This document shows positions 1 through 56,576 of a DNA stretch of 60,633 nt, piece after piece. The notes beneath the pieces were generated by a model that had not been told where the DNA came from, made no database searches, and saw only the letters and a list, made by a program, of their open reading frames with translations. Each line of letters starts with the position of its first letter. The first letter of the stretch is position 1. Source of the DNA: Escherichia phage Dru_SM1; sequence record PP596835.1, one strand, 5' to 3'. Both the position numbers and the translations under genes were made by a program.

Positions 1-11
1 AGGGGGCTTCC

Positions 12-569
12 ATGAACGGGGCAAGTCAAGAGCAATATGATCGTGACTGGACGAATTACATCCAGTATGCAAATAGCTTGTCCGCTGAAGAGATGGCAAT
101 ACGTGACAAAGTTGTTGCTGAGTACATGTTCGACTACAATTGGACTAACGCTTGCATGAGATGCGGGTTCAATGCTATGTTTGCACAGGAGCTTGGCCAA
201 CGCTTTGCCACGGACTGTTATGTTCGATGGAAGCTCAAGGAGATTGAAAGATCCCGTGTTCAACGTACTTCTGAGCAAGCTAACATTGAAGCAGACCTTG
301 AGCGTCAGCATATCATTGAAGCATTAAAACGTGAAGCTCATTATACAGGACCGGGATCTTCTCAAGCTGCTAGAGTCGCCGCATTGGGCAAGCTTGCACA
401 AATTTATGATTTGGATGCTCCCAAGAAGGCTAAGATTGATGTTACTAACAGAGGCGGCGTAATGATAGTCCCTGCTGTAGCAAATATTGACGAATGGGAA
501 AAAACTGCATCCGAGTCTCAACAACGACTAGTTAAAGAGACTGAAGATGGAGCTAAACCGACAACCTGA
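12..569 (+). CDS. putative terminase small subunit
   Basis: 185-aa ORF directly upstream of and overlapping the large terminase gene; AGGGGG RBS before ATG at 12; assigned by position only. Confidence 0.45.
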   Translation: MNGASQEQYDRDWTNYIQYANSLSAEEMAIRDKVVAEYMFDYNWTNACMRCGFNAMFAQELGQRFATDCYVRWKLKEIERSRVQRTSEQANIEADLERQHIIEALKREAHYTGPGSSQAARVAALGKLAQIYDLDAPKKAKIDVTNRGGVMIVPAVANIDEWEKTASESQQRLVKETEDGAKPTT

Positions 570-2106
570 TAACATGCCGCGAGTCGTCTGGAAACCACAT
601 CCAGGTTCACAGACACTCGCTCTATCCTGCCCCGCTGATATTATCTTATACCATGGAACTCGCGGTCCTGGAAAAACGGACTGCCAGCTTATGCGTTTCC
701 GTAAGAATGTTGGTGTAGGGTACGGTAAATTTTGGAAGGGTATTATATTCGACCGTGAATATAAAAACCTTGATGACCTTGTAACTAAATCCCAGCGTTG
801 GTTTCCTGAATTTAAAGACGGGGCTAAATTCCTTAGTTCTAAGTCTGATTATAAATGGGTTTGGCCTACTGGTGAAGAGCTACTGTTCCGCGTTGCTTGT
901 AAAGAAAAGGATTACTGGTCTTATCACGGTCACGAATACCCATTTATCGGATGGAACGAATTGACAAAATATCCGGACGGGCGTTTGTTTGAAGCTATGA
1001 TGTCCTGTAACCGTTCATCTTTCCTACCAGAAGATAACCCAATTATCAATCCAGATGGTACGGTTACATATTTACCGGATATCCCTCTTGAAGTGTTTGC
1101 TACCAGTAACCCGTTCGGTGCGGGGCATAACTGGGTTAAGAAACGCTTCATTGACGCTGCACCGATGGGTAAAATACTCAGGAAGACTACGCGAGTGTTT
1201 AACCCGAGGACGCAGAAAGACGAAGATGTGGTTACGACGCAATGCCATATCTTTGGTTCGTACCGTGAAAACAAAAACCTAAGTCCAAAATATATTGCAG
1301 AACTTATGTCTATCACAGACCCGAACAAGCGTGCTGCATGGTTGGGCGGGAGCTGGGATATTACATCCGGTGGTATGTTCGATGATCTGTGGCGTAGCAC
1401 TGTTCACAAAGTACGTCCATTCCCGATTCCATCAAGCTGGAAGATTACACGTTCTTTCGACTGGGGTTCTTCAAAACCATTCTCCGTTGGCTGGTGGGCT
1501 ATTAGTGATGGTTCGGATGTTGTACGTGAAGATGGTACTACATTCTCTACTGTACGCGGTGACTTGTTCCGTATTAACGAGTGGTACGGCACTAACGGTA
1601 AAACAAACGAAGGTCTACATTTGCTGGACTCAGAGATTGCAAGCGGTATACTGGAGCGGGAATTGGCCTGGGGTATACACGACCGTGTAGTTCCTGGACC
1701 TGCGGATAACTCTATTTGGGATCTGGAGAACAATAACTCTACCGCTGCAACAATGGCGAAGAAAATCCGTCTTAACGGCAAGCTGTATAACGGTATCCAT
1801 TGGAAGAGAAGTGATAAATCTGCTGGGTCGCGTAAACGCGGATGGCAGAAAATGCGTGAGTTTCTTAAAGCTGCATTGCGGGAAGATGCAAACGGTAAAC
1901 CTTTGCCCGGTCCGCGCGAGAATCCAGCAATGTACATTTTTGATAACTGCAACTATTTCTTTGAGCTGGTTCCAAGTCTGCCTCGCGATGAAGTGGATCA
2001 GGACGACGTTGATACGGAATGTGAAGACCATATGGGTGATGAAGTTCGTTATATGGTTCTGGATCAAGCTGTTTATACAGGTGTTGGCAAAACTATCGGT
2101 ATTTAA
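547..2106 (+). CDS. terL: terminase large subunit
   Basis: 519-aa ORF; N-terminal P-loop-like ATPase motif (YHGTRGPGKTD); acidic C-terminal region; sits between putative small subunit and portal. Confidence 0.8.
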   Translation: MELNRQPDNMPRVVWKPHPGSQTLALSCPADIILYHGTRGPGKTDCQLMRFRKNVGVGYGKFWKGIIFDREYKNLDDLVTKSQRWFPEFKDGAKFLSSKSDYKWVWPTGEELLFRVACKEKDYWSYHGHEYPFIGWNELTKYPDGRLFEAMMSCNRSSFLPEDNPIINPDGTVTYLPDIPLEVFATSNPFGAGHNWVKKRFIDAAPMGKILRKTTRVFNPRTQKDEDVVTTQCHIFGSYRENKNLSPKYIAELMSITDPNKRAAWLGGSWDITSGGMFDDLWRSTVHKVRPFPIPSSWKITRSFDWGSSKPFSVGWWAISDGSDVVREDGTTFSTVRGDLFRINEWYGTNGKTNEGLHLLDSEIASGILERELAWGIHDRVVPGPADNSIWDLENNNSTAATMAKKIRLNGKLYNGIHWKRSDKSAGSRKRGWQKMREFLKAALREDANGKPLPGPRENPAMYIFDNCNYFFELVPSLPRDEVDQDDVDTECEDHMGDEVRYMVLDQAVYTGVGKTIGI

Positions 2107-2117
2107 CTGGAGGGTAT

Positions 2118-3614
2118 ATGGGTATTGATGCAACTCACCCGCTATATGACAAGTGGAAGGACGCATGGGTTAAGTGCAACGACTGCTATGAGGGTGAAGA
2201 TAAAATTAAGGAAGAAGGTGTTAAATATCTACCACCTTTAGCTTCCATGATTATTGATGGGATGAATAATCCTAATGATTTGGGCTTTCAACGTTGGCTC
2301 GCTTATCGTCTGCGTGCTAACTTCCCTGACGATTATTCAAGTGCGGTTACAAACAATTTAGGTCTGCTACACCAGAAGCCTCCTACAATCCAGCTCCCAC
2401 CTGAAATGGAATACATGCGGGAGCTGTGTACTGCGGACGGTGAAGACATTATTGCTCTGCTACGTCGCATCAATGAAATGCAGTTAAAAAATGGACGTTT
2501 GGGCCTGCTGCTGGACTTGCCGAAAGGTGAGGATGTAAATAACAGACCTTATATTAGCGTTTATGATGCGTTATCCATTATCAACTGGGATGATGGTAAA
2601 GATGAATTGGGCAATATCAACTTGAACATGGTTGTTCTGGATGAAAGCGGTCCTGTACGTGTCAATCAGTTTGACTGGAAAGAAGAGAAGCGTTATCGCG
2701 TTCTACAATTAGGTCCAATGGACACAGATGAAGTAGCAGGTGGAGCAGTCTACTCCCAACATCTGTTTATTAACAATACCAATTATGATGAAGGGCAAAT
2801 GATTGCTCCTTATTATAAAGGTAATACGCTGGATGAAATTCCTTTCCAGTTTGTCAATACAACAGATATTACCCCAGCACCGGAAGCGCCGCCATTGTTG
2901 GGTCTTGCTAACATTTGTCTAAGCATGTACCGAAGTGACGCGGATTACCGCCAATGCTTGCATATGCAGGGTCAGGATACTTTAGTTGTTGTTGGTGGTT
3001 CCATGGAAAATGGAGATAAAGCCCCTCAGCGTATTGGTCCTGGCGCTGTCATTAACGTTGCTATTGGTGGTGACGCTAAATATGTAGGTGTTAGCGGTGA
3101 CGGTTTGTCCGAGCAACGTCTCGCACTGGCAGCGGATAAGCAGGAAGCCCAAATTAAAGCCGGGCAAATGGTAAACAACACCAAGAGCACGCAGGAATCA
3201 GGCGAAGCTATGAAAACGCGTATTGCTGCGCGTACAGCTAGCCTGATTCGAATTGCGTATACTGGTGCGGCAGGTTTGGAAAACTTGCTGAAGGTTTGCG
3301 CTAAATGGATGGGTGCTGATCCAGAGAAAGTTGTGGTTAAGCCTAATCTTGAATTTACCAAGAGCATGTTTAACGGTCAGGACTTTGTTCAAATTATTAC
3401 TGCACGCAACCTTAAGGCTCCACTCAGCTTGCAGTCTATCCATGGCTGGCTTGTTGATCAGGGCTTAACCACACTAAGCTTTGAAGAAGAAATGGCAATT
3501 CTTGAAGAAGAGCTTAAGAAGTGGCCTCTGCCCGATGATGCTAAGGCTGATTTAAACGCAGAGCAGCAAGTAAACAAAGATCCTAAGGAAGACGACGCTT
3601 CCGATAAAGAATAG
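2118..3614 (+). CDS. portal protein
   Basis: 498-aa ORF immediately after terL with GGAGGG RBS; size, acidic C-terminus and position typical of portal proteins. Confidence 0.65.
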   Translation: MGIDATHPLYDKWKDAWVKCNDCYEGEDKIKEEGVKYLPPLASMIIDGMNNPNDLGFQRWLAYRLRANFPDDYSSAVTNNLGLLHQKPPTIQLPPEMEYMRELCTADGEDIIALLRRINEMQLKNGRLGLLLDLPKGEDVNNRPYISVYDALSIINWDDGKDELGNINLNMVVLDESGPVRVNQFDWKEEKRYRVLQLGPMDTDEVAGGAVYSQHLFINNTNYDEGQMIAPYYKGNTLDEIPFQFVNTTDITPAPEAPPLLGLANICLSMYRSDADYRQCLHMQGQDTLVVVGGSMENGDKAPQRIGPGAVINVAIGGDAKYVGVSGDGLSEQRLALAADKQEAQIKAGQMVNNTKSTQESGEAMKTRIAARTASLIRIAYTGAAGLENLLKVCAKWMGADPEKVVVKPNLEFTKSMFNGQDFVQIITARNLKAPLSLQSIHGWLVDQGLTTLSFEEEMAILEEELKKWPLPDDAKADLNAEQQVNKDPKEDDASDKE

Positions 3615-3710
3615 TTGCAACTTCCAAATTGATTGGTTTATATTAACGAACACGGGGCTGGGACGGCTCAGCTCCAAAAAACGTCACACGGGTGACAACG
3701 GAGATAAGAA

Positions 3711-28088: not shown

Positions 28089-29041
28089 TAAACACGTTCT
28101 CCAATTAAAACACCGCGAAGATTTTCCCCAAAGAATGCGCAAGGTTGCGGATACAAACTAAAGTCCGCAGTCTTAACCACATTTTCAAGCAATAGCAGGA
28201 TATCAATATTGTACACTCCCGTTATTGTGCGGTCTTGTAATACGAAGCTCGCACCTTCTGCATCATCGTAATGAGTACGCGCTAGACCGTTTTCAATATA
28301 TACGCGAGGACGATCTTCTGCAAAAGGTTTAATTTTATGCAAACCCTCAAAAAGACCGGGATCAACAGGATGTGCATTGCATTGAACATTTAAAATACGA
28401 CGTATATCCGGCCACTCCGCATCAATAAGCTGTGTTCGCAACCAGCGACCTTCTGGATAATGAAATGTTACATTGTTCTTGCTAACCTGAATATGTGTCG
28501 GGTTAGCTTTAATGCGCAGTATTTCTTTAATAGCAACAGACGGTATTATGCAGTCAATAGGGAATTGATTACCAAACCAATATTCCGCAATGGTGACGTT
28601 ATTTGTAGCAAACAGGCTACCGTTATTAATCAGAATACCGCAAGCCCACGGGCGGGATGCATCTGAGCCTACAAACGGAGCAACGGACTTCACACCATGA
28701 ACGAGGCGAGCCCCATCTATTTCGTATAAATCACCTTCAGGGAATACGTGAGGCGTTTCCTTGTCAATGCAGCGTATAGCAACACGAAACGGTCCGGACT
28801 TAATATTAAGTTTACCGTTAGCCATCATTGTTAACTGTACGGTTTCGTCACAGTTTGAAATAGCTTTAATCATAGGCCCAGCTTCGGGCTTGCAATCAAT
28901 ATCCAGCTCAATAGGGCTACCCAGTGCAATAACACCGTTAAAGCCCTGTACCTGTCCATCACGGATAAGAAAGCTGGTAAGCCCTTCTACCAGTTCCTTT
29001 TTAGCGACGGACCCTTGAACAAATTTAAGAGCGTCTAACAT
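28088..29041 (-). CDS. hypothetical protein (possible polymerase accessory / sliding clamp; unverified)
   Basis: 317-aa ORF translationally coupled to the DNA polymerase gene; function guessed from position only. Confidence 0.3.
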   Translation of the reverse strand: MLDALKFVQGSVAKKELVEGLTSFLIRDGQVQGFNGVIALGSPIELDIDCKPEAGPMIKAISNCDETVQLTMMANGKLNIKSGPFRVAIRCIDKETPHVFPEGDLYEIDGARLVHGVKSVAPFVGSDASRPWACGILINNGSLFATNNVTIAEYWFGNQFPIDCIIPSVAIKEILRIKANPTHIQVSKNNVTFHYPEGRWLRTQLIDAEWPDIRRILNVQCNAHPVDPGLFEGLHKIKPFAEDRPRVYIENGLARTHYDDAEGASFVLQDRTITGVYNIDILLLLENVVKTADFSLYPQPCAFFGENLRGVLIGERV

Positions 29042-44959: not shown

Positions 44960-45145
44960 GTTTACCTCCTTTATATGTATTTTAATATGAAGTAAAATCA
45001 ATCTCAATAAAAAAGCGCAACGTTTTCACGCTGCGCTTAGTTTAAATAAGGTACTTGACTATTCAGCTTCCCTTATTTCCGGTAAATTATACAGCCTCGC
45101 CAAAGGCTGGTGACGGTTTGGTACATCTGGCGCCGTCGCGTTAAA

Positions 45146-45172
45146 CATCGTTCACATCGTTCACATCGTTCA
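45146..45172. repeat. tandem repeat (CATCGTTCA)x3, with a fourth copy at ~45267
   Basis: three perfect head-to-tail 9-mers inside a 345-bp non-coding gap (45008-45352). Confidence 0.8.
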
Positions 45173-45352
45173 TTAAGTTGCGGGTTTACCCTGTCCGCTC
45201 CAGGAAGCCCAGCGAAAGTAGTTGCTGTAAGGAGGTACAGCTACCGCTTTCAAGGGCTTGAGTTAAGCATCGTTCACTAAGTTAATGTTGTTAAATTGTT
45301 AAACCTCGTTAACTGTGGTTATCTTAAAGGATGCAGTCTTGAATGGCAAGCT

Positions 45353-50665: not shown

Positions 50666-50760
50666 AATAACACTCCTCGTTATAAGAATAGATTTAAGCC
50701 GTCCACAAAACTTTTACAGTATCGCAAAACCTTTAAAAGTTACGTTATAAGGGAATTATA

Positions 50761-51000
50761 TTAAAAGATAGTGCTAGTGGCAATTATAGTGGCATTACTG
50801 CGTATAGTGCGCCGTTGCTGGCTTTCAATGTCCTGCCACTATAACTGCACAAACGGCTATCACTACTATTTTGTATAAAGTATAAATTTTTGGGTTTTGC
50901 GTTACGTATAAATACCCCCTTTAAACTAAGAATTATAGTAGTAGTGGATAAACATAGTGAAATGCCACTATCACTACTTACTATAATTAATTTAATAAAA
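50761..51000. promoter_or_regulatory. iteron/operator-like repeat cluster (core TATAGTG / CACTAT, at least 8 copies in both orientations)
   Basis: 10-bp inverted repeat TATAGTGGCA (50785-50794) / TGCCACTATA (50833-50842); three direct ATAGTG copies at 17-19-bp spacing; TATCACTACT twice. Confidence 0.5.
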
Positions 51001-51290
51001 AATTGGGGTATCTGTACCAAAAACCTAAAACTTTCAGTCAACAGACTAAAAACGGATAGAAACTAAAAGTTAATAATTAATACCATAAATATATATAAAA
51101 TAAGGTTTTATTAGTAATTTATATAGTACCTATTGGTATTAGTTGACGTTCGCAAGGTCTGCTACAAAAAATCACAAAACTCACAAAAAGTGAAAGTTTG
51201 CAAGTCATGGCAAAATTGTTAATAGAATATAGTGTATGGATATACAGTATTATTCCAGATTCCGGAATAATTGGAATAATGGAATAAATT
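51001..51290. other. AT-rich non-coding region (candidate DNA unwinding element / divergent promoters)
   Basis: ~290 bp ORF-free and strongly AT-rich, with short direct repeats (TCACAAAA x2, GGAATAAT x3); between the two divergent gene blocks. Confidence 0.4.
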
Positions 51291-51456: not shown

Positions 51457-51786
51457 ATGAGTCTTGAATGGGATTATAAAAAACACTGGTGGAAGAAAGA
51501 GCCAAAATGGAATAAATATTTTGAGTATAAGGATGGAGATTTATTCTGGAAGAAGGACTTTAAGAAATACGGCATATCCAAAGGTGATGAAGTTAAAGAT
51601 GTTTGTGCTCCGCATCTTCATTGTAAAATTTGCTTGGCACCTATTTGCCAAGGTGAAAACCGTAAAGTCTTAAGGGCTCGTGTCGTTTATGAAATGTTCC
51701 ACGGTCCACAGGGTAAAGGAGCTGTCTTCGGGAAGTATATCAACGACCCGAAGAATGACATGATTGAAAATCTTTATCTAAAATAG
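51457..51786 (+). CDS. degenerate HNH endonuclease-like protein
   Basis: ORF 51292-51786; likely start ATG 51457 (GGAGGG RBS); N-terminus matches the intact HNH genes (FEYKDGDLFWKK) but the HNH region is altered (INDPKNDMIENLYLK instead of IDHI(D/N)H...RIENLRL) and the C-terminal domain is missing. Confidence 0.4.
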   Translation: MSLEWDYKKHWWKKEPKWNKYFEYKDGDLFWKKDFKKYGISKGDEVKDVCAPHLHCKICLAPICQGENRKVLRARVVYEMFHGPQGKGAVFGKYINDPKNDMIENLYLK

Positions 51787-52942: not shown

Positions 52943-53013
52943 AATGTAATCCTCTTTTTGTTTAAGTTGACTTATTATTGCCCAGTCAGATCAACTAGGC
53001 AAGATATAAATCA

Positions 53014-53177
53014 ACTATTTTCGCTTACATAATCCAGTGCAGCTTCGAGGAAATAAAATTCTTCCTGCTTATATAAGCTGATTGCCCACTCCAGCTGAGC
53101 GCGGGTAAGGTGGCGATATTTGTTGTCGATGCAGTAGCTGCGACCGAAGTACATAATAGTGAAGTATGAGCTGGACA
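53014..53177 (-). CDS. small hypothetical protein (54 aa)
   Basis: ATG 53177 with GGAGG RBS; more protein-like than the overlapping 72-aa ORF in another frame. Confidence 0.3.
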
Positions 53178-53396
53178 TAACGCGCCTCCAAGTGTGGTTA
53201 AGAAGTAGTACCGTGTTGCTATGGGTACATAATAGCGATGCATTGTGATATTGAATAGGCCAAACGTGCTATTTTGATATTGTTTTGCATCTAGTGAAAA
53301 TTATGCTTGCCCTGCATGTTTAGCACTAATGGCCTAACTAACATCACATCATCTGGAGTATTCGCGCAGGCGTACACATGCTTATAAGGTGGTGCC

Positions 53397-53510
53397 GGAT
53401 CGACCAGGTGGGAGCGGTGCACAGGATCGACCAGGGGCATCCGGCGCCCTGCGTGTGCGGAGCCTACCAGGTGGGAGCAGCTCCTGCGTGTGCCGGAAAT
53501 ACCAGGTGCG
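53397..53510. repeat. GC-rich degenerate direct repeats (ACCAGGTGGGAGC x2, GATCGACCAGG x2, CTGCGTGTGC x2)
   Basis: four ACCAGG(T)G units ~26-37 bp apart in a GC-rich island within a divergent intergenic region. Confidence 0.5.
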
Positions 53511-53562
53511 CGCGAGCCCATGCACTTTACAAAATATTTTTATAAAAAGTGCAAAAAGGTGT

Positions 53563-53590
53563 AGACATATGATCGGTCTAGCACTACTAT
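53563..53590 (+). promoter_or_regulatory. candidate promoter for the rightward small genes (TAGACA-N16-TACTAT)
   Basis: -35/-10-like hexamers ~50 nt upstream of the ATG at 53640; weak. Confidence 0.25.
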
Positions 53591-53639
53591 ATACACATAC
53601 CGCAAGGGTACTACAAATTAACTCAAAGGGGTTTACATC

Positions 53640-53843
53640 ATGTCTATTCGTAACGTTATCTGTGTAATGGTTGCAAACAATAATTTTGGTTTCGTAGAAG
53701 GTGCAGAGTATAAAATGGATCTTAAAACTCGTTGCATTATTAAAGGTGAAGAGGAATGGCGTGCAGTAGTAGAAGATTGCGGAGATATCTACATCTATAG
53801 TTCTGATACAATGAAAACTATCGCTGTCTTCGAATTTAACTAA
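53640..53843 (+). CDS. hypothetical protein
   Basis: 67-aa ORF with RBS. Confidence 0.4.
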   Translation: MSIRNVICVMVANNNFGFVEGAEYKMDLKTRCIIKGEEEWRAVVEDCGDIYIYSSDTMKTIAVFEFN

Positions 53844-53911
53844 GCTAACTTATACAATGGGCATTAATACAGTGCCCATTAATAAGCTAACTAATTATAA
53901 CGAGGTGTATT

Positions 53912-54097
53912 ATGTCTACGGACACTGTGAAGTCTGTAAATAATAGCAACAGAACATTTAAAGTTATGTATTATGGTCAGGACGTTGGTCAGGTCAAGGC
54001 GCCCAGCCGTATCGTGGCGGAAGAGTTCGTCCGTACAGAGATGCAACTTGGAATCGCCGATTTTGGCGCCATCGTTAAACTGGTAGAGGTGTACTAA
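53912..54097 (+). CDS. hypothetical protein
   Basis: 61-aa ORF with GAGGTG RBS. Confidence 0.4.
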   Translation: MSTDTVKSVNNSNRTFKVMYYGQDVGQVKAPSRIVAEEFVRTEMQLGIADFGAIVKLVEVY

Positions 54098-54098
54098 T

Positions 54099-54239
54099 AT
54101 GCCACGCAAATACACGCTTACACGCGCACAGCACGCGCTATTAATTGCAGCAATGCGCGCAGAATATGCAGTTCATGGCTGGCATAGTGCCATGATGCGC
54201 GGTAAAAGCATATATGCGGACATGCGCTCGCAAGGATAA
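54099..54239 (+). CDS. small hypothetical protein (46 aa)
   Basis: ATG 54099 directly after the upstream stop; basic; below the ORF-track cutoff. Confidence 0.3.
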   Translation: MPRKYTLTRAQHALLIAAMRAEYAVHGWHSAMMRGKSIYADMRSQG

Positions 54240-54730
54240 CGCACACAGCAGCACCACAGCGAGCTAAAGCTCAAAGGTAATGGTAATGCATTACCAACAC
54301 ACAACGAGCACGCTGTACCCCACAAAGCGGCGCTAATTTCAACACTCACAGGCCGTACGAGTTAACGTACAGCCTGCTCTGCTATATGCACGCCCCATAC
54401 ACAGCCAGCTCACGATATACATTAATATAATAACGAATGAAATAGATTCGTCTGGAAGAATAACAGATCTTGCAGTCACAGACCGGTCCAATGAGCCGAC
54501 TCATAGACCCCACCTAGGATCATCAGGGTACTAATAATCACCCGAGGGCGCCTTATCCATCCTGATAGTAAGTCCACGCCTAAATCTCACCTGTCACATA
54601 GCCTATCCACCTATATGCGAAGGCAGACCCGACCCACCTTAGAATCTACCCTATCAACATATTCATCATTGAAAAATCTGTGGGTTATTGCTAAAATATA
54701 GATGACAAAAAATTGATCGAAGGTATTGAA

Positions 54731-55204
54731 ATGAACTGGAATGATATATTTGAATACAGAGATGGTGTTTTGTATTGGAAGCTGAGTAGGCGATGTATAA
54801 ACGCAGGCGACAGAGCAGGATGTGTTCAAGAGGATGGATACACGAGAATAGTATTTGAAGGTAAGCAATACCTGCGACACCGCATAGTGTGGTTAATGCA
54901 CGGAAGAACTATTCCGAAAGGTATGGAAATTGATCACATTGACCATGACCGCCAAAATGACCGAATTGAAAATTTACGTTTAGTTAGTGCTGTAGTAAAC
55001 TGTCAAAATAAAGGAAAATATATCAGTAACACAAGCGGCGTCACTGGTGTAAGTTGGGACAGAAAGAATTTAAAATGGTTTGTAACTATAAGAGTGAATA
55101 AAAAGAATGTATTTTTAGGTCGTTTTGACAAATTCGATGAAGCAGTTAAGGTACGAAAGGAAGCGGAATTGCTGTATAATTTCCACGAAAATCACGGTAA
55201 ATGA
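54731..55204 (+). CDS. HNH homing endonuclease
   Basis: HNH motif IDHIDHDRQNDRIENLRL; likely start ATG 54731 (GAAGG RBS). Confidence 0.7.
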   Translation: MNWNDIFEYRDGVLYWKLSRRCINAGDRAGCVQEDGYTRIVFEGKQYLRHRIVWLMHGRTIPKGMEIDHIDHDRQNDRIENLRLVSAVVNCQNKGKYISNTSGVTGVSWDRKNLKWFVTIRVNKKNVFLGRFDKFDEAVKVRKEAELLYNFHENHGK

Positions 55205-55223
55205 TGGTTAAGCAGAGGAAATT

Positions 55224-55421
55224 GTGAGACTTGGACCTTATCTTGGTTATTATGGTCGGGCTTTTTGGAATGATGAAACTAAAAGGTTTGAAGGTTGGCT
55301 AATTACACCTGAACGTTTTACATTTCATAGTGTAAAAGAGAAAAATATCGTTCTTAATTTTCAAAAATGTGTCACTAAATATGTAGAGGAGCAAGAAGAA
55401 TGTCTTATGTGTCAGCATTAG
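55224..55421 (+). CDS. hypothetical protein
   Basis: 65-aa ORF. Confidence 0.35.
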   Translation: MRLGPYLGYYGRAFWNDETKRFEGWLITPERFTFHSVKEKNIVLNFQKCVTKYVEEQEECLMCQH

Positions 55422-55765
55422 AAGCTGCTGGATGCGAAGTATTAGATTTTGTTGAGTTTGGTTGTTATCAGGGTGAATGGCTTGCCCTGATAAGAAAAGA
55501 TGGTGTATTGGGAGTTTGCGAAGGGTCTTATGGATCATGCTCTGGTTGCGATTCATTTCAAGCTGAATTTGGCTGGGGTGATGAGGAAAGTCCCGATTAT
55601 CAGAAACGTCTTGCTGAATTTGGTGAAAGTTACTTACCAGCTAACAGCTTTGAAGAAATGATCGCCAAACTTCAAAAGGATATTGAGAATTATGATTGGG
55701 ATGACGATTATAAATCTATGCTAGAAACTGTTCGTGAATGGCAGAAAAATATAGGACAAGTATAA
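55400..55765 (+). CDS. hypothetical protein
   Basis: 121-aa acidic ORF with several Cys (CEGSYGSCSGC). Confidence 0.4.
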   Translation: MSYVSALEAAGCEVLDFVEFGCYQGEWLALIRKDGVLGVCEGSYGSCSGCDSFQAEFGWGDEESPDYQKRLAEFGESYLPANSFEEMIAKLQKDIENYDWDDDYKSMLETVREWQKNIGQV

Positions 55766-55816
55766 TTATCAATCTATAATGGGCTCTACGGAGCCCTTAA
55801 TTATCTGGAGGTTGTT

Positions 55817-56119
55817 ATGCTGTATTTAGGAATGGATTTAAATCGAGAAAAACCGGATATCCCTGCGGTCGATTCTAAAACTGCAATCAAAGTCCTGTTT
55901 TTCGGTCAGGAAATCCCTGTGGCGCCTTGGGCTACTCACATTGCAGTGGACGCTAACGGTGTTGTCCACTGTTATAATAGTAAGCCTAAAGCATATGAAC
56001 AACTTAAAGAATGGCTGCATGATGGTGATAAGAGTCGCTACTGCGGTGAATTTGACCTTGAAGGCGCGGACTGGCGGGATACATTGAAGGAGATTACTAT
56101 ATATGTCACAGAAAAATAA
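55817..56119 (+). CDS. hypothetical protein
   Basis: 100-aa ORF with GGAGG RBS. Confidence 0.4.
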   Translation: MLYLGMDLNREKPDIPAVDSKTAIKVLFFGQEIPVAPWATHIAVDANGVVHCYNSKPKAYEQLKEWLHDGDKSRYCGEFDLEGADWRDTLKEITIYVTEK

Positions 56120-56576
56120 ATGCTATGATTTAGAACGCGACGCTTGTGAATTAGATCAAGCTGGAGGTTATTACTCCCGCCATGTTATGGCAATGACGTC
56201 CGAAGGTTTGCACAGCAAAGGTGATATTGCTGCGGAACTGGGTTATCGTGACATGCGCATTGACCAGTTAGAAGCAAAATGGCGTGCTCAGGAAGAACGT
56301 GCAGAAAATGCTGAGACGGATCTTGTCAACATGCGTGCTGCTGAGCACGCTCTATCTGATTCTTATATTCGTTTGCGTCAAATTGTTGGTGCAATGAATC
56401 CGCCTGGTGTGAGCAGCGAAGAGGTGTGGGCGCATACCGAGAAGAAGGCTCAAGAGTTGCGTGATCGCTGCGAAGCTCTGGAAGCTGTAGCCAAGGACTT
56501 CCTGCGTCGTAATAAATATGGTCCTTTGTTCTATCGTGATTTGTATAACCGTTTTAAGGAGGTTATTGGTGATTGA
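56103..56576 (+). CDS. hypothetical protein
   Basis: 157-aa ORF. Confidence 0.4.
   Translation: MSQKNKCYDLERDACELDQAGGYYSRHVMAMTSEGLHSKGDIAAELGYRDMRIDQLEAKWRAQEERAENAETDLVNMRAAEHALSDSYIRLRQIVGAMNPPGVSSEEVWAHTEKKAQELRDRCEALEAVAKDFLRRNKYGPLFYRDLYNRFKEVIGD

Follow-up and report, generated by a model that had tools for sequence, protein, structure and literature searches.

A non-coding tract in the genome of Escherichia phage Dru_SM1 likely straddles the inner boundary of a long direct terminal repeat

The closest described systems with direct terminal repeats (DTRs) are those of Nonagvirus 9g and the Queuovirinae phage iggy. A physical end of the 9g chromosome was mapped by Kulikov et al. from read starts at position 28,243, in a non-coding region beside divergent promoters, and a DTR of unknown length was inferred from reads crossing this end (PMC4276943). 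In iggy, a 1,091-bp DTR was mapped with Nanopore reads (PMC10484667). Here, we describe a tract at positions 54240-54712 of Escherichia phage Dru_SM1 (PP596835.1), analyzed within a window that comprises the whole record of 60,633 nt, a complete Seuratvirus (Queuovirinae) genome opened at terS. A megablast search with the tract region matched 24 phage records, nearly all of them Escherichia Seuratvirus (such as Skure, GottfriedDienst, CAjan and Seurat). In the searchable literature, we found neither a description nor an experimental mapping of Seuratvirus termini, no description of Seuratvirus transcription or transcript data, and no paper on this tract. We consider it likely that the tract straddles the right (inner) boundary of a DTR of approximately 3.6 kb, which would be one physical end of the packaged chromosome. 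This boundary, probably the terminase cut site, is the best-supported feature of the tract and was absent from a first-pass annotation made from the sequence alone.

Two Seuratvirus records, ECP2304 and yong3, are approximately 3.5 kb longer than the others and matched the query twice. In ECP2304, positions 1-3695 are identical to positions 59896-63590 (a 3,695-bp end repeat with 100% identity), and yong3 carries a 3,424-bp repeat at both ends, also with 100% identity. The right edges of the two repeats are homologous to the base and fall 1 nt before TCCATCCTGATAGTA, a sequence that begins TCCATCC. With the edge marked by a slash, the sequence is ...GAGGGCCCTT/ATCCATCCTGATAG in ECP2304 and ...GGTTGGGAT/GTCCATCCTGATAG in yong3; the homologous edge in Dru_SM1 is 54554/54555, in the sequence ...GAGGGCGCCTT (54554) / A (54555) TCCATCCTGATAGTAAG. 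The Dru_SM1 record is a single-copy representation, and a repeat present at both ends is seen in the relatives only. The predicted repeat in Dru_SM1 extends from approximately 50961, a left edge placed by colinearity with ECP2304, to 54554, so the right physical end of the virion DNA is predicted to be ...CGAGGGCGCCTT (54554).

As a control, we examined the record of Nonagvirus HdSG1, in which a 3,363-bp end repeat stops at ...GCGGGGCGGCTC/TTAGATC. This is exactly the mapped end of 9g, indicating that the end duplications in such records report real termini. A fixed, non-permuted boundary at a homologous position is therefore found in independent isolates twice: in ECP2304 and yong3, and in HdSG1 and 9g. 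Overlaps arising as artefacts of assembly would not coincide between isolates. The sequence around the boundary is also strongly constrained. The 12-nt core ATCCTGATAGTA (54559-54570) does not vary in any of the 26 distinct relatives aligned, which include both the long and the short forms of the tract described below, and the 42 nt at 54500-54541 are invariant in 10 long-form sequences. A DTR boundary accounts both for the invariant core beside it and for the 42 invariant nt before it. TerL has 67% identity to the protein of Nonagvirus JenP2 and 64% to that of Pseudomonas phage Knedl (which we take to be an iggy-like phage); the only Pfam assignment is Terminase_6N. The features of the tract and its surroundings are collected in Table 1.

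Table 1. Features of the Dru_SM1 genome in and around the tract, with the reading frames annotated over the homologous tract in relatives.
Feature	Position	Strand	Basis or remark
Last 16 nt of predicted repeat (CACCCGAGGGCGCCTT)	54539-54554		Ends of ECP2304 and yong3 repeats
Motif A-TCCATCCTGATAGTA, directly outside predicted repeat	54555-54570		Candidate recognition/cleavage determinant for terminase
C-rich, G-poor, structure-poor untranslated tract (rut-like)	54555-54660	+	Composition and folding
Block 1	54240-54296	+	Begins directly after the stop TAA of the upstream gene (54237-54239)
Hairpin CAGGCCGTACG-AGTTAA-CGTACAGCCTG	54349-54377	+	Terminator-like, without a proper U tract
Internal sigma-70-like promoter, CAGCCA-N18-TATAAT	54402-54431	+	-10 at 54426-54431
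Three small hairpins 3' of internal promoter	54433-54451, 54452-54475, 54485-54509	+	Single-sequence and alignment folds
HNH cassette promoter, TTGAAA-17 nt-TGCTAAAAT (extended -10)	54669-54697	+	Promoter scan, 10/12 matches with TG
Free-standing HNH endonuclease gene	54731-55204	+	Pfam HNH_3, E 3e-17
Three small genes directly upstream of tract	53640-53843, 53912-54097, 54099-54239	+	
TerS gene	12-569		
TerL gene	547-2106		
Structural genes	1-24.3 kb	+	
Replication and 7-deazaguanine genes	24.5-53.2 kb	-	
Small genes	53.64-60.6 kb	+	
Annotated frames over homologous tract in relatives	L004 1528-1806; L005 1528-1908; L006 1528-1818; L029 1528-2154		CAjan; Seurat gp70; VogelGryff; KS_W4, respectively

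The predicted arrangement is similar to that of 9g and HdSG1 in several respects. Like Dru_SM1, these phages have two divergent transcription halves and a repeat of approximately 3.4 kb around the divergent promoter region. The right edge of the repeat is again in non-coding sequence on the plus strand side and has the same polarity, and a GGGGCG-like patch rich in G/C is located 4-7 nt before the end. In Dru_SM1, the G/C patch is at 54544-54552. In contrast, the boundary sequences themselves are unrelated (...GGCGGCTC/TTAGATCT in 9g versus ...GCCTT/ATCCATCCTGATAG in Seuratvirus), and neither a motif search with the tract blocks nor blastn identified a counterpart in the 9g interval at 22-33 kb. 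The position of the end also differs: in Seuratvirus, three to four small genes and approximately 315 nt of non-coding DNA separate the promoters from the end, whereas in 9g the end precedes the first plus strand gene.

A more distant likeness is that to T7 and T5, in which the ends are defined and not permuted, each end carries the repeat, terminase cuts the concatemers sequence-specifically, and short C-rich repeats are found near the ends. T7 has arrays of CCTAAAG-like heptamers near its ends, and in T5 the inner edge of the repeat is a non-coding zone rich in repeats and palindromes. As in T5, the predicted repeat carries early genes with host-type promoters. At 3.6 kb, it is intermediate in length between the repeats of T7 (160 bp) and T5 (10 kb), and it shows no sequence similarity to either. 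The likeness concerns the ends, the repeat and the terminase cuts, with no indication of two-step injection or of the hairpin-primed duplication of T7.

By analogy with T7/T5-type packaging, replication would generate concatemers with one copy of the repeat per unit. Terminase (TerS and TerL) would recognize the boundary sequences and cut the concatemers sequence-specifically, and the second copy of the repeat would be restored by DNA synthesis. The repeat as predicted would include several small genes, the iterons, the divergent promoters and, from the tract, its first 315 nt (54240-54554). These 315 nt would contribute a palindrome/hairpin where the upstream operon ends, along with a terminator-like hairpin and an outward-pointing, conserved sigma-70 promoter. 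The approximately 110 nt just outside the repeat would be a C-rich, unstructured segment, followed by the HNH cassette with its own strong promoter. In a newly injected chromosome, the left copy of the repeat would be joined to the plus strand half and the right copy to the minus strand half. Because the left copy would join the plus strand half, the boundary promoter and the leader resembling a Rho utilization (rut) site could control read-through into that half: the leader (54555-54660) probably acts as a Rho-loading site that limits read-through out of the repeat.

Several points weigh against this interpretation. The ends are derived from the assembly of two GenBank records and not from Seuratvirus reads, we found no paper on either the ECP2304 or the yong3 record, and yong3 is labelled 'circular' despite its duplication. 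The left boundary is poorly conserved among ECP2304, yong3 and Dru_SM1, and no motif is convincingly common to the left and right boundaries. (We considered TCCNNCNTGATAGNA as a shared boundary motif and rejected it: it occurs at both ECP2304 boundaries, but not in yong3 or Dru_SM1.) With respect to transcription, the -35 hexamer of the internal promoter in Dru_SM1 matches at only 3 of 6 positions, the hairpin at 54349-54377 is not followed by a U tract, and the argument for Rho is one of base composition. Finally, a terminus by itself does not explain the C/A strand bias, the 16-bp palindrome and its GGTAAT repeats, or the three CCACCTA copies on either side of the boundary; these could be sites for the terminase small subunit or for Rho, or junctions at which the HNH cassette recombined. 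We infer that Dru_SM1 has the same ends as its relatives, that cleavage or recognition takes place at the invariant motif and that Rho is active in this region.

The tract is found in relatives in two forms: a long form of approximately 375 nt (Dru_SM1, GottfriedDienst, SA126VB, Skure, SLUR25, SHIN8, ECP2304 and three metagenome contigs) and a short form of approximately 238 nt (CAjan, Seurat, VogelGryff and many others). Both forms contain block 1 (54240-54293) and block 2 (from approximately 54527). The first-pass annotation had counted conservation in related genomes among the conditions for its proposals, and conservation of the sequence is evident, with identities of 0.89-0.97 to 9 long-form relatives. 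In the neighbouring genes of the same relatives, identity is 0.885-0.97 at codon positions 1+2 and 0.755-0.87 at position 3. There is no 3-periodicity among the variable sites of the tract (31:26:20 for the long form, 16:12:15 for the short form), and the open reading frames (ORFs) annotated across it in relatives are on both strands, are of low complexity, differ in their end points and tolerate 1-nt indels. Since the tract is as conserved as codon positions 1+2, more conserved than position 3 and devoid of signs of coding, selection acts on something other than protein. On this comparative sequence evidence, the tract is non-coding and under purifying selection.

'Hypothetical proteins' of 92-208 aa are annotated over the homologous tract in CAjan, Seurat (gp70), VogelGryff and KS_W4 (Table 1). 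Only the scarcity of stop codons in C/A-rich sequence keeps these frames open; they lack codon periodicity, and 1-nt indels break them in sister phages. No match to the tract sequence was found in 5,426 E. coli genomes or in PLSDB, giving no indication of a host or plasmid origin. A metagenome scan yielded 8 further close relatives, while scans of IMG/VR with an 18-mer and a 15-mer returned almost exclusively chance matches, the real ones being slur01 and one 60.7-kb contig. A comparison of synteny in Klebsiella phage Carvaje, attempted through a shared downstream protein, was uninformative.

It had been stated that neither strand of the tract contains an ORF of 60 aa or more. This is correct for the sense strand, where 54240-54712 has no ORF of at least 30 aa and a single one of at least 20 aa (28 aa, 54615-54701), but not for the antisense strand: an 89-aa ORF (54611-54880), probably spurious, covers the last 100 nt of the tract and runs antisense to the HNH gene. 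The tract is indeed unusual for this genome: at 473 nt, it exceeds every other stretch that is free of sense-strand ORFs of at least 40 aa (the next are 396 and 345 nt). A 345-nt stretch likewise lacking such an ORF is located at 45008-45352, within the minus strand module. The base composition of the tract is A.336, C.283, G.173 and T.207. Its description as C/A-rich is borne out by an A+C content of 0.62, the highest in the genome and in the top 0.03% of 473-nt windows genome-wide; the accompanying description as purine-poor is not, as purines make up 0.51, equal to the genome average.

The suggestion that the tract carries promoters gained support from an internal sigma-70-like promoter with an invariant -10 and from a strong extended -10 promoter before the HNH gene. 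At the putative internal promoter (54402-54431), the hexamers are separated by a spacing within the sigma-70 range of 16-18 nt and are conserved relative to their flanks: TATAAT (54426-54431) is invariant in 10 long-form sequences, as are positions 54403-54413, while the flanking positions 54423-54425 and 54432 vary. The -35 hexamer is TAGCCA in most relatives and CAGCCA in Dru_SM1. This site is annotated as a promoter in SA126VB. The promoter before the HNH gene travels with the cassette and is conserved in Skure, SA80RD, WildeMaa and phiG7.

Between these promoters lies the rut-like segment. The 80-nt window at 54573 contains 31 C versus 10 G, the highest sense-strand excess of C over G in the genome, and the 100-nt windows at 54561 and 54581 fold with only -10.1 and -8.1 kcal/mol, placing them among the least structured 1-2%. 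The segment thus has the composition of a rut site (at least 80 nt, untranslated, C-rich, G-poor and weakly structured). In this it is reminiscent of the lambda nutR-tR1 region, where a long untranslated stretch of the same character follows short early genes and precedes further early genes. The resemblance to lambda tR1 is one of composition only: no boxA or boxB was recognized in the tract (TGCTCT at 54375 corresponds to just the first 6 nt of the rrn boxA and is not conserved in Skure), and no antiterminator was identified among the proteins encoded upstream of the tract.

The palindromes that had been reported in the tract are real. The perfect 14-bp palindrome GGTAATGCATTACC (54282-54295) extends to a perfect 16-mer, TGGTAATGCATTACCA (54281-54296), which is the longest perfect palindrome in the whole genome; when the region is shuffled, a palindrome of 14 bp or longer arises in 2% of cases. 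It is made up of two direct copies of GGTAAT (54276-54287) and an inverted copy in block 1, which is kept in all Seuratvirus relatives fetched, whichever gene is upstream. Among 10 long-form sequences, positions 54279-54304 show no variation. The short-form relatives differ in that CATTA forms a 9-bp stem with a distal GAGCTAATG instead, which SA80RD annotates as a terminator. The adjacent CGTACG (54354) and GTTAAC (54361) are the stem and loop of one hairpin (54349-54377), with a predicted RNA fold of -17.4 kcal/mol in Dru_SM1 and -21.9 kcal/mol in GottfriedDienst. Its homologue is annotated as a rho-independent terminator in SA126VB. In Dru_SM1, the tail UGCUCUGCUAUAU is not the U tract of an intrinsic terminator, and a terminator scan called no plus strand terminator in the tract, this hairpin included. 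Compared with GottfriedDienst and other relatives, the 24-mer at 54351-54374 within this hairpin is exactly inverted (reverse-complemented), which looks like a template-switch inversion of a palindrome; as a consequence of the inversion, a U-G pair becomes a C-A mismatch in plus strand RNA, and the lone non-Watson-Crick pair shifts to the other strand.

Three copies of CCACCT(A/T) had also been noted, and these were located at 54510 (CCACCTA, just inside the predicted repeat), 54607 (CCACCTA) and 54634 (CCACCTT), out of 13 CCACCT sites genome-wide. None of the 14-mers of the tract is repeated in the rest of the genome above chance, leaving a dispersed operator unsupported. Other short resemblances were discarded following alignment. 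The octamer GGGTACTA (53606 and 54526) and a CACCTG/CAGGTG likeness, considered as a link to the upstream iterons, were judged coincidental because relatives do not conserve them, and the resemblances to boxA, ops and DnaA boxes are partial matches that are likewise not conserved.

These signals could also belong to a tract that is an inter-operon transcription-control spacer and contains no chromosome end. Early transcripts from the divergent promoters would stop at the hairpins and a Rho-dependent terminator, and new promoters would restart expression of the downstream small genes, much as in the lambda cro-nutR-tR1-cII interval. The position of the tract after three small early-type genes fits this explanation, as do the terminator-like hairpin, the promoter with its invariant -10, the sense strand's strongest C-over-G excess and least structure, and the strong promoter at 54669-54697. 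However, a spacer does not explain why the duplications of two independent records end at the same base beside an invariant motif, and rut sites and terminators seldom need invariant blocks of approximately 40 nt. We therefore regard it as unlikely in its 'no terminus' form, which is the only form in which it is a rival; as an overlaid function, a spacer is compatible with a DTR boundary. A more elaborate proposal, that the repeat is a T5-like 'first-entering' pre-early module with divergent host-type promoters and that the tract serves as gate, packaging terminus and developmental switch, seems quite unlikely to us. Such a gate may arrest or delay either DNA entry (an injection stop) or transcription (Rho attenuation relieved by a product of the repeat), and its features may be the genome's longest palindrome, the hairpin, the CCACCTA repeats and the most C-rich unstructured leader. 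The first-pass suggestion of a structured non-coding RNA (ncRNA) fared poorly. Rfam gave no hits at the gathering score over the whole genome and none in the tract at E<10, searches for tRNA and tmRNA were negative, and the covariation check that had been proposed yielded compensatory changes in 0 of 78 predicted pairs among 10 long-form sequences, which, at 89-97% identity, are too close to give this check much power. We consider it distinctly improbable that the tract encodes an ncRNA from the internal promoter (with a start near 54438), either structured or as an unstructured C/A-rich regulatory or decoy RNA. The promoter and the region downstream of it are conserved, the three small hairpins in that region (54433-54509) have substitutions mainly in their loops, and a 5-bp hairpin, YURUC-N6-GAUAG, takes U-G/C-G and A-U/G-U changes that fit the plus strand only. 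Those hairpins nevertheless show no compensatory changes, and the consensus fold of block 2, the most conserved block (26 distinct sequences), is a single 5-bp hairpin of -3.3 kcal/mol with one-sided changes only. The single-sequence fold exceeds shuffles on the plus strand (z -2.8), but the minus strand folds about as well (z -2.2), and somewhat better folding than shuffles on both strands is expected of palindrome-rich DNA. There is also no intrinsic terminator to set a 3' end, and short-form relatives lack both the promoter and the hairpins.

The remaining alternatives concern the tract as DNA. A protein-binding region such as a replication origin would draw on the CACAGC and CCACCTA repeats, the DnaA-box-like TTATCCATC and CTATCCACC and an AT-rich patch (54414-54448). 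Although short repeats and palindromes are present, and 7/9 matches to TTATCCACA occur at 54553 and 54603, we consider an origin here very unlikely: a far better iteron array, conserved in Nonagvirus 9g, lies 1 kb upstream, and a position weight matrix built from those iterons finds no site in the tract. Instead of at least three near-identical direct repeats of approximately 17-22 bp, as in an iteron array, the tract has only degenerate two-copy repeats, and most of its short repeats differ between the long and short forms. Least probable of all is that the tract is a decayed gene, neutral filler preserved by recent common ancestry and recombination, or a landing pad or homing target for the HNH endonuclease, the last of these having been raised in the first-pass annotation. 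That several annotators call ORFs in the tract, that the early region is highly mosaic with short universal linkers, and that CCACCTA-type repeats mark the left junctions of the HNH cassettes could each be read in this way. A decayed gene or filler is nevertheless difficult to reconcile with called ORFs that are of low complexity, end at different points, tolerate frameshifts and lack codon periodicity, or with conservation like that of codon positions 1+2 and not position 3; the tract is also present and conserved in the majority of relatives, which are without the HNH gene. The boundary of a long DTR remains our preferred explanation.

The gene downstream of the tract does encode an HNH endonuclease, as previously noted (Table 1), with its start likely at ATG 54731 and not at TTG 54713. 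The gene is not present in most relatives, the tract occurs with or without the cassette, and the left junctions of both types of HNH cassette are at CCACCTA-type repeats. The following gene (55224-55421) has a GTG start and lacks the first 22 positions of phrog_24875; its native promoter region and 5' end were lost when the HNH gene, a mobile cassette, was inserted in their place. HNH proteins have reportedly been associated with terminase and cos sites of the HK97 type (Kala et al. 2014). The Dru_SM1 gene is similar in that it lies within 180 nt of the predicted chromosome end. Unlike the HK97-type proteins, it is found in a minority of Seuratviruses, brings its own promoter and cuts the next gene short, as expected of a mobile homing endonuclease and not of a core packaging factor. 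The early region as a whole (53000-56200) is highly mosaic: segments found in 15-19 relatives at 93-99% identity (for example, 54100-54150, 55350-55400 and 55750-55800) alternate with segments found in few relatives, suggesting recombination at conserved linkers.

Other elements were observed within the predicted repeat. In the divergent intergenic region (53179-53639), four iterons in the same orientation, GTGYGCCGGAnnnACCAGG(T/G)G, lie in a GC-rich island at 53394-53510. ACCAGG[TG]G has only four sites in the genome, all of them in this array. Four copies of the iteron are found in CAjan (which annotates a CDS across them), GottfriedDienst and CSP1, and three in Greed and SLUR25; Nonagvirus 9g has three copies of ATACCAGGTA. 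The array is a candidate origin or operator inside the terminal repeat. A 39-nt inverted repeat with 72% complementarity (53197-53235 and 53584-53622) mirrors the two divergent promoter and 5'-UTR regions, and each of its arms has GGTACTAC 16 nt past a -10-like hexamer (TATTAT or TACTAT). Around the predicted left boundary, the sequence at approximately 50666-51290 is AT-rich and contains no convincing gene, only short ORFs of low complexity (35, 85 and 58 aa); of the 15 TATAGTR sites in the genome, 7 are found within 450 nt here (50785-51228). The plus strand ORF at 51457-51786, inside the minus strand module, is a degenerate paralogue of the HNH endonuclease (34% identity over 91 aa) in which the IDHIDHD catalytic stretch has been replaced. 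It has no Pfam hit, and the segment is not present in ECP2304. This ORF looks like a second, decaying homing-endonuclease cassette within the terminal repeat.

DTR ends are known from 9g/HdSG1 and iggy; what is new here is the predicted Seuratvirus end, and no new principle is involved. If the end is at 54554/54555, most public Seuratvirus records omit approximately 3.6 kb of virion DNA and misplace the chromosome ends. These records, opened at terS or at arbitrary points, include those of the BASEL model phages Bas21-25 and of CAjan, the reference for preQ0-modified DNA. Several of the 'hypothetical proteins' annotated over the tract (in CAjan, Seurat [gp70], VogelGryff and KS_W4) would not be genes. 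Correct ends matter for the rebooting and engineering of the genomes of this widely used phage group and for the interpretation of coverage. They would also set gene dosage, since the region from approximately 50.96 to 54.55 kb would be diploid in the virion, and they are relevant to which genes are the first to be expressed once the DNA has entered. Beside this end, the invariant motif would be a candidate terminase site for a long-DTR siphovirus, a packaging class in which few recognition sites have been characterized.

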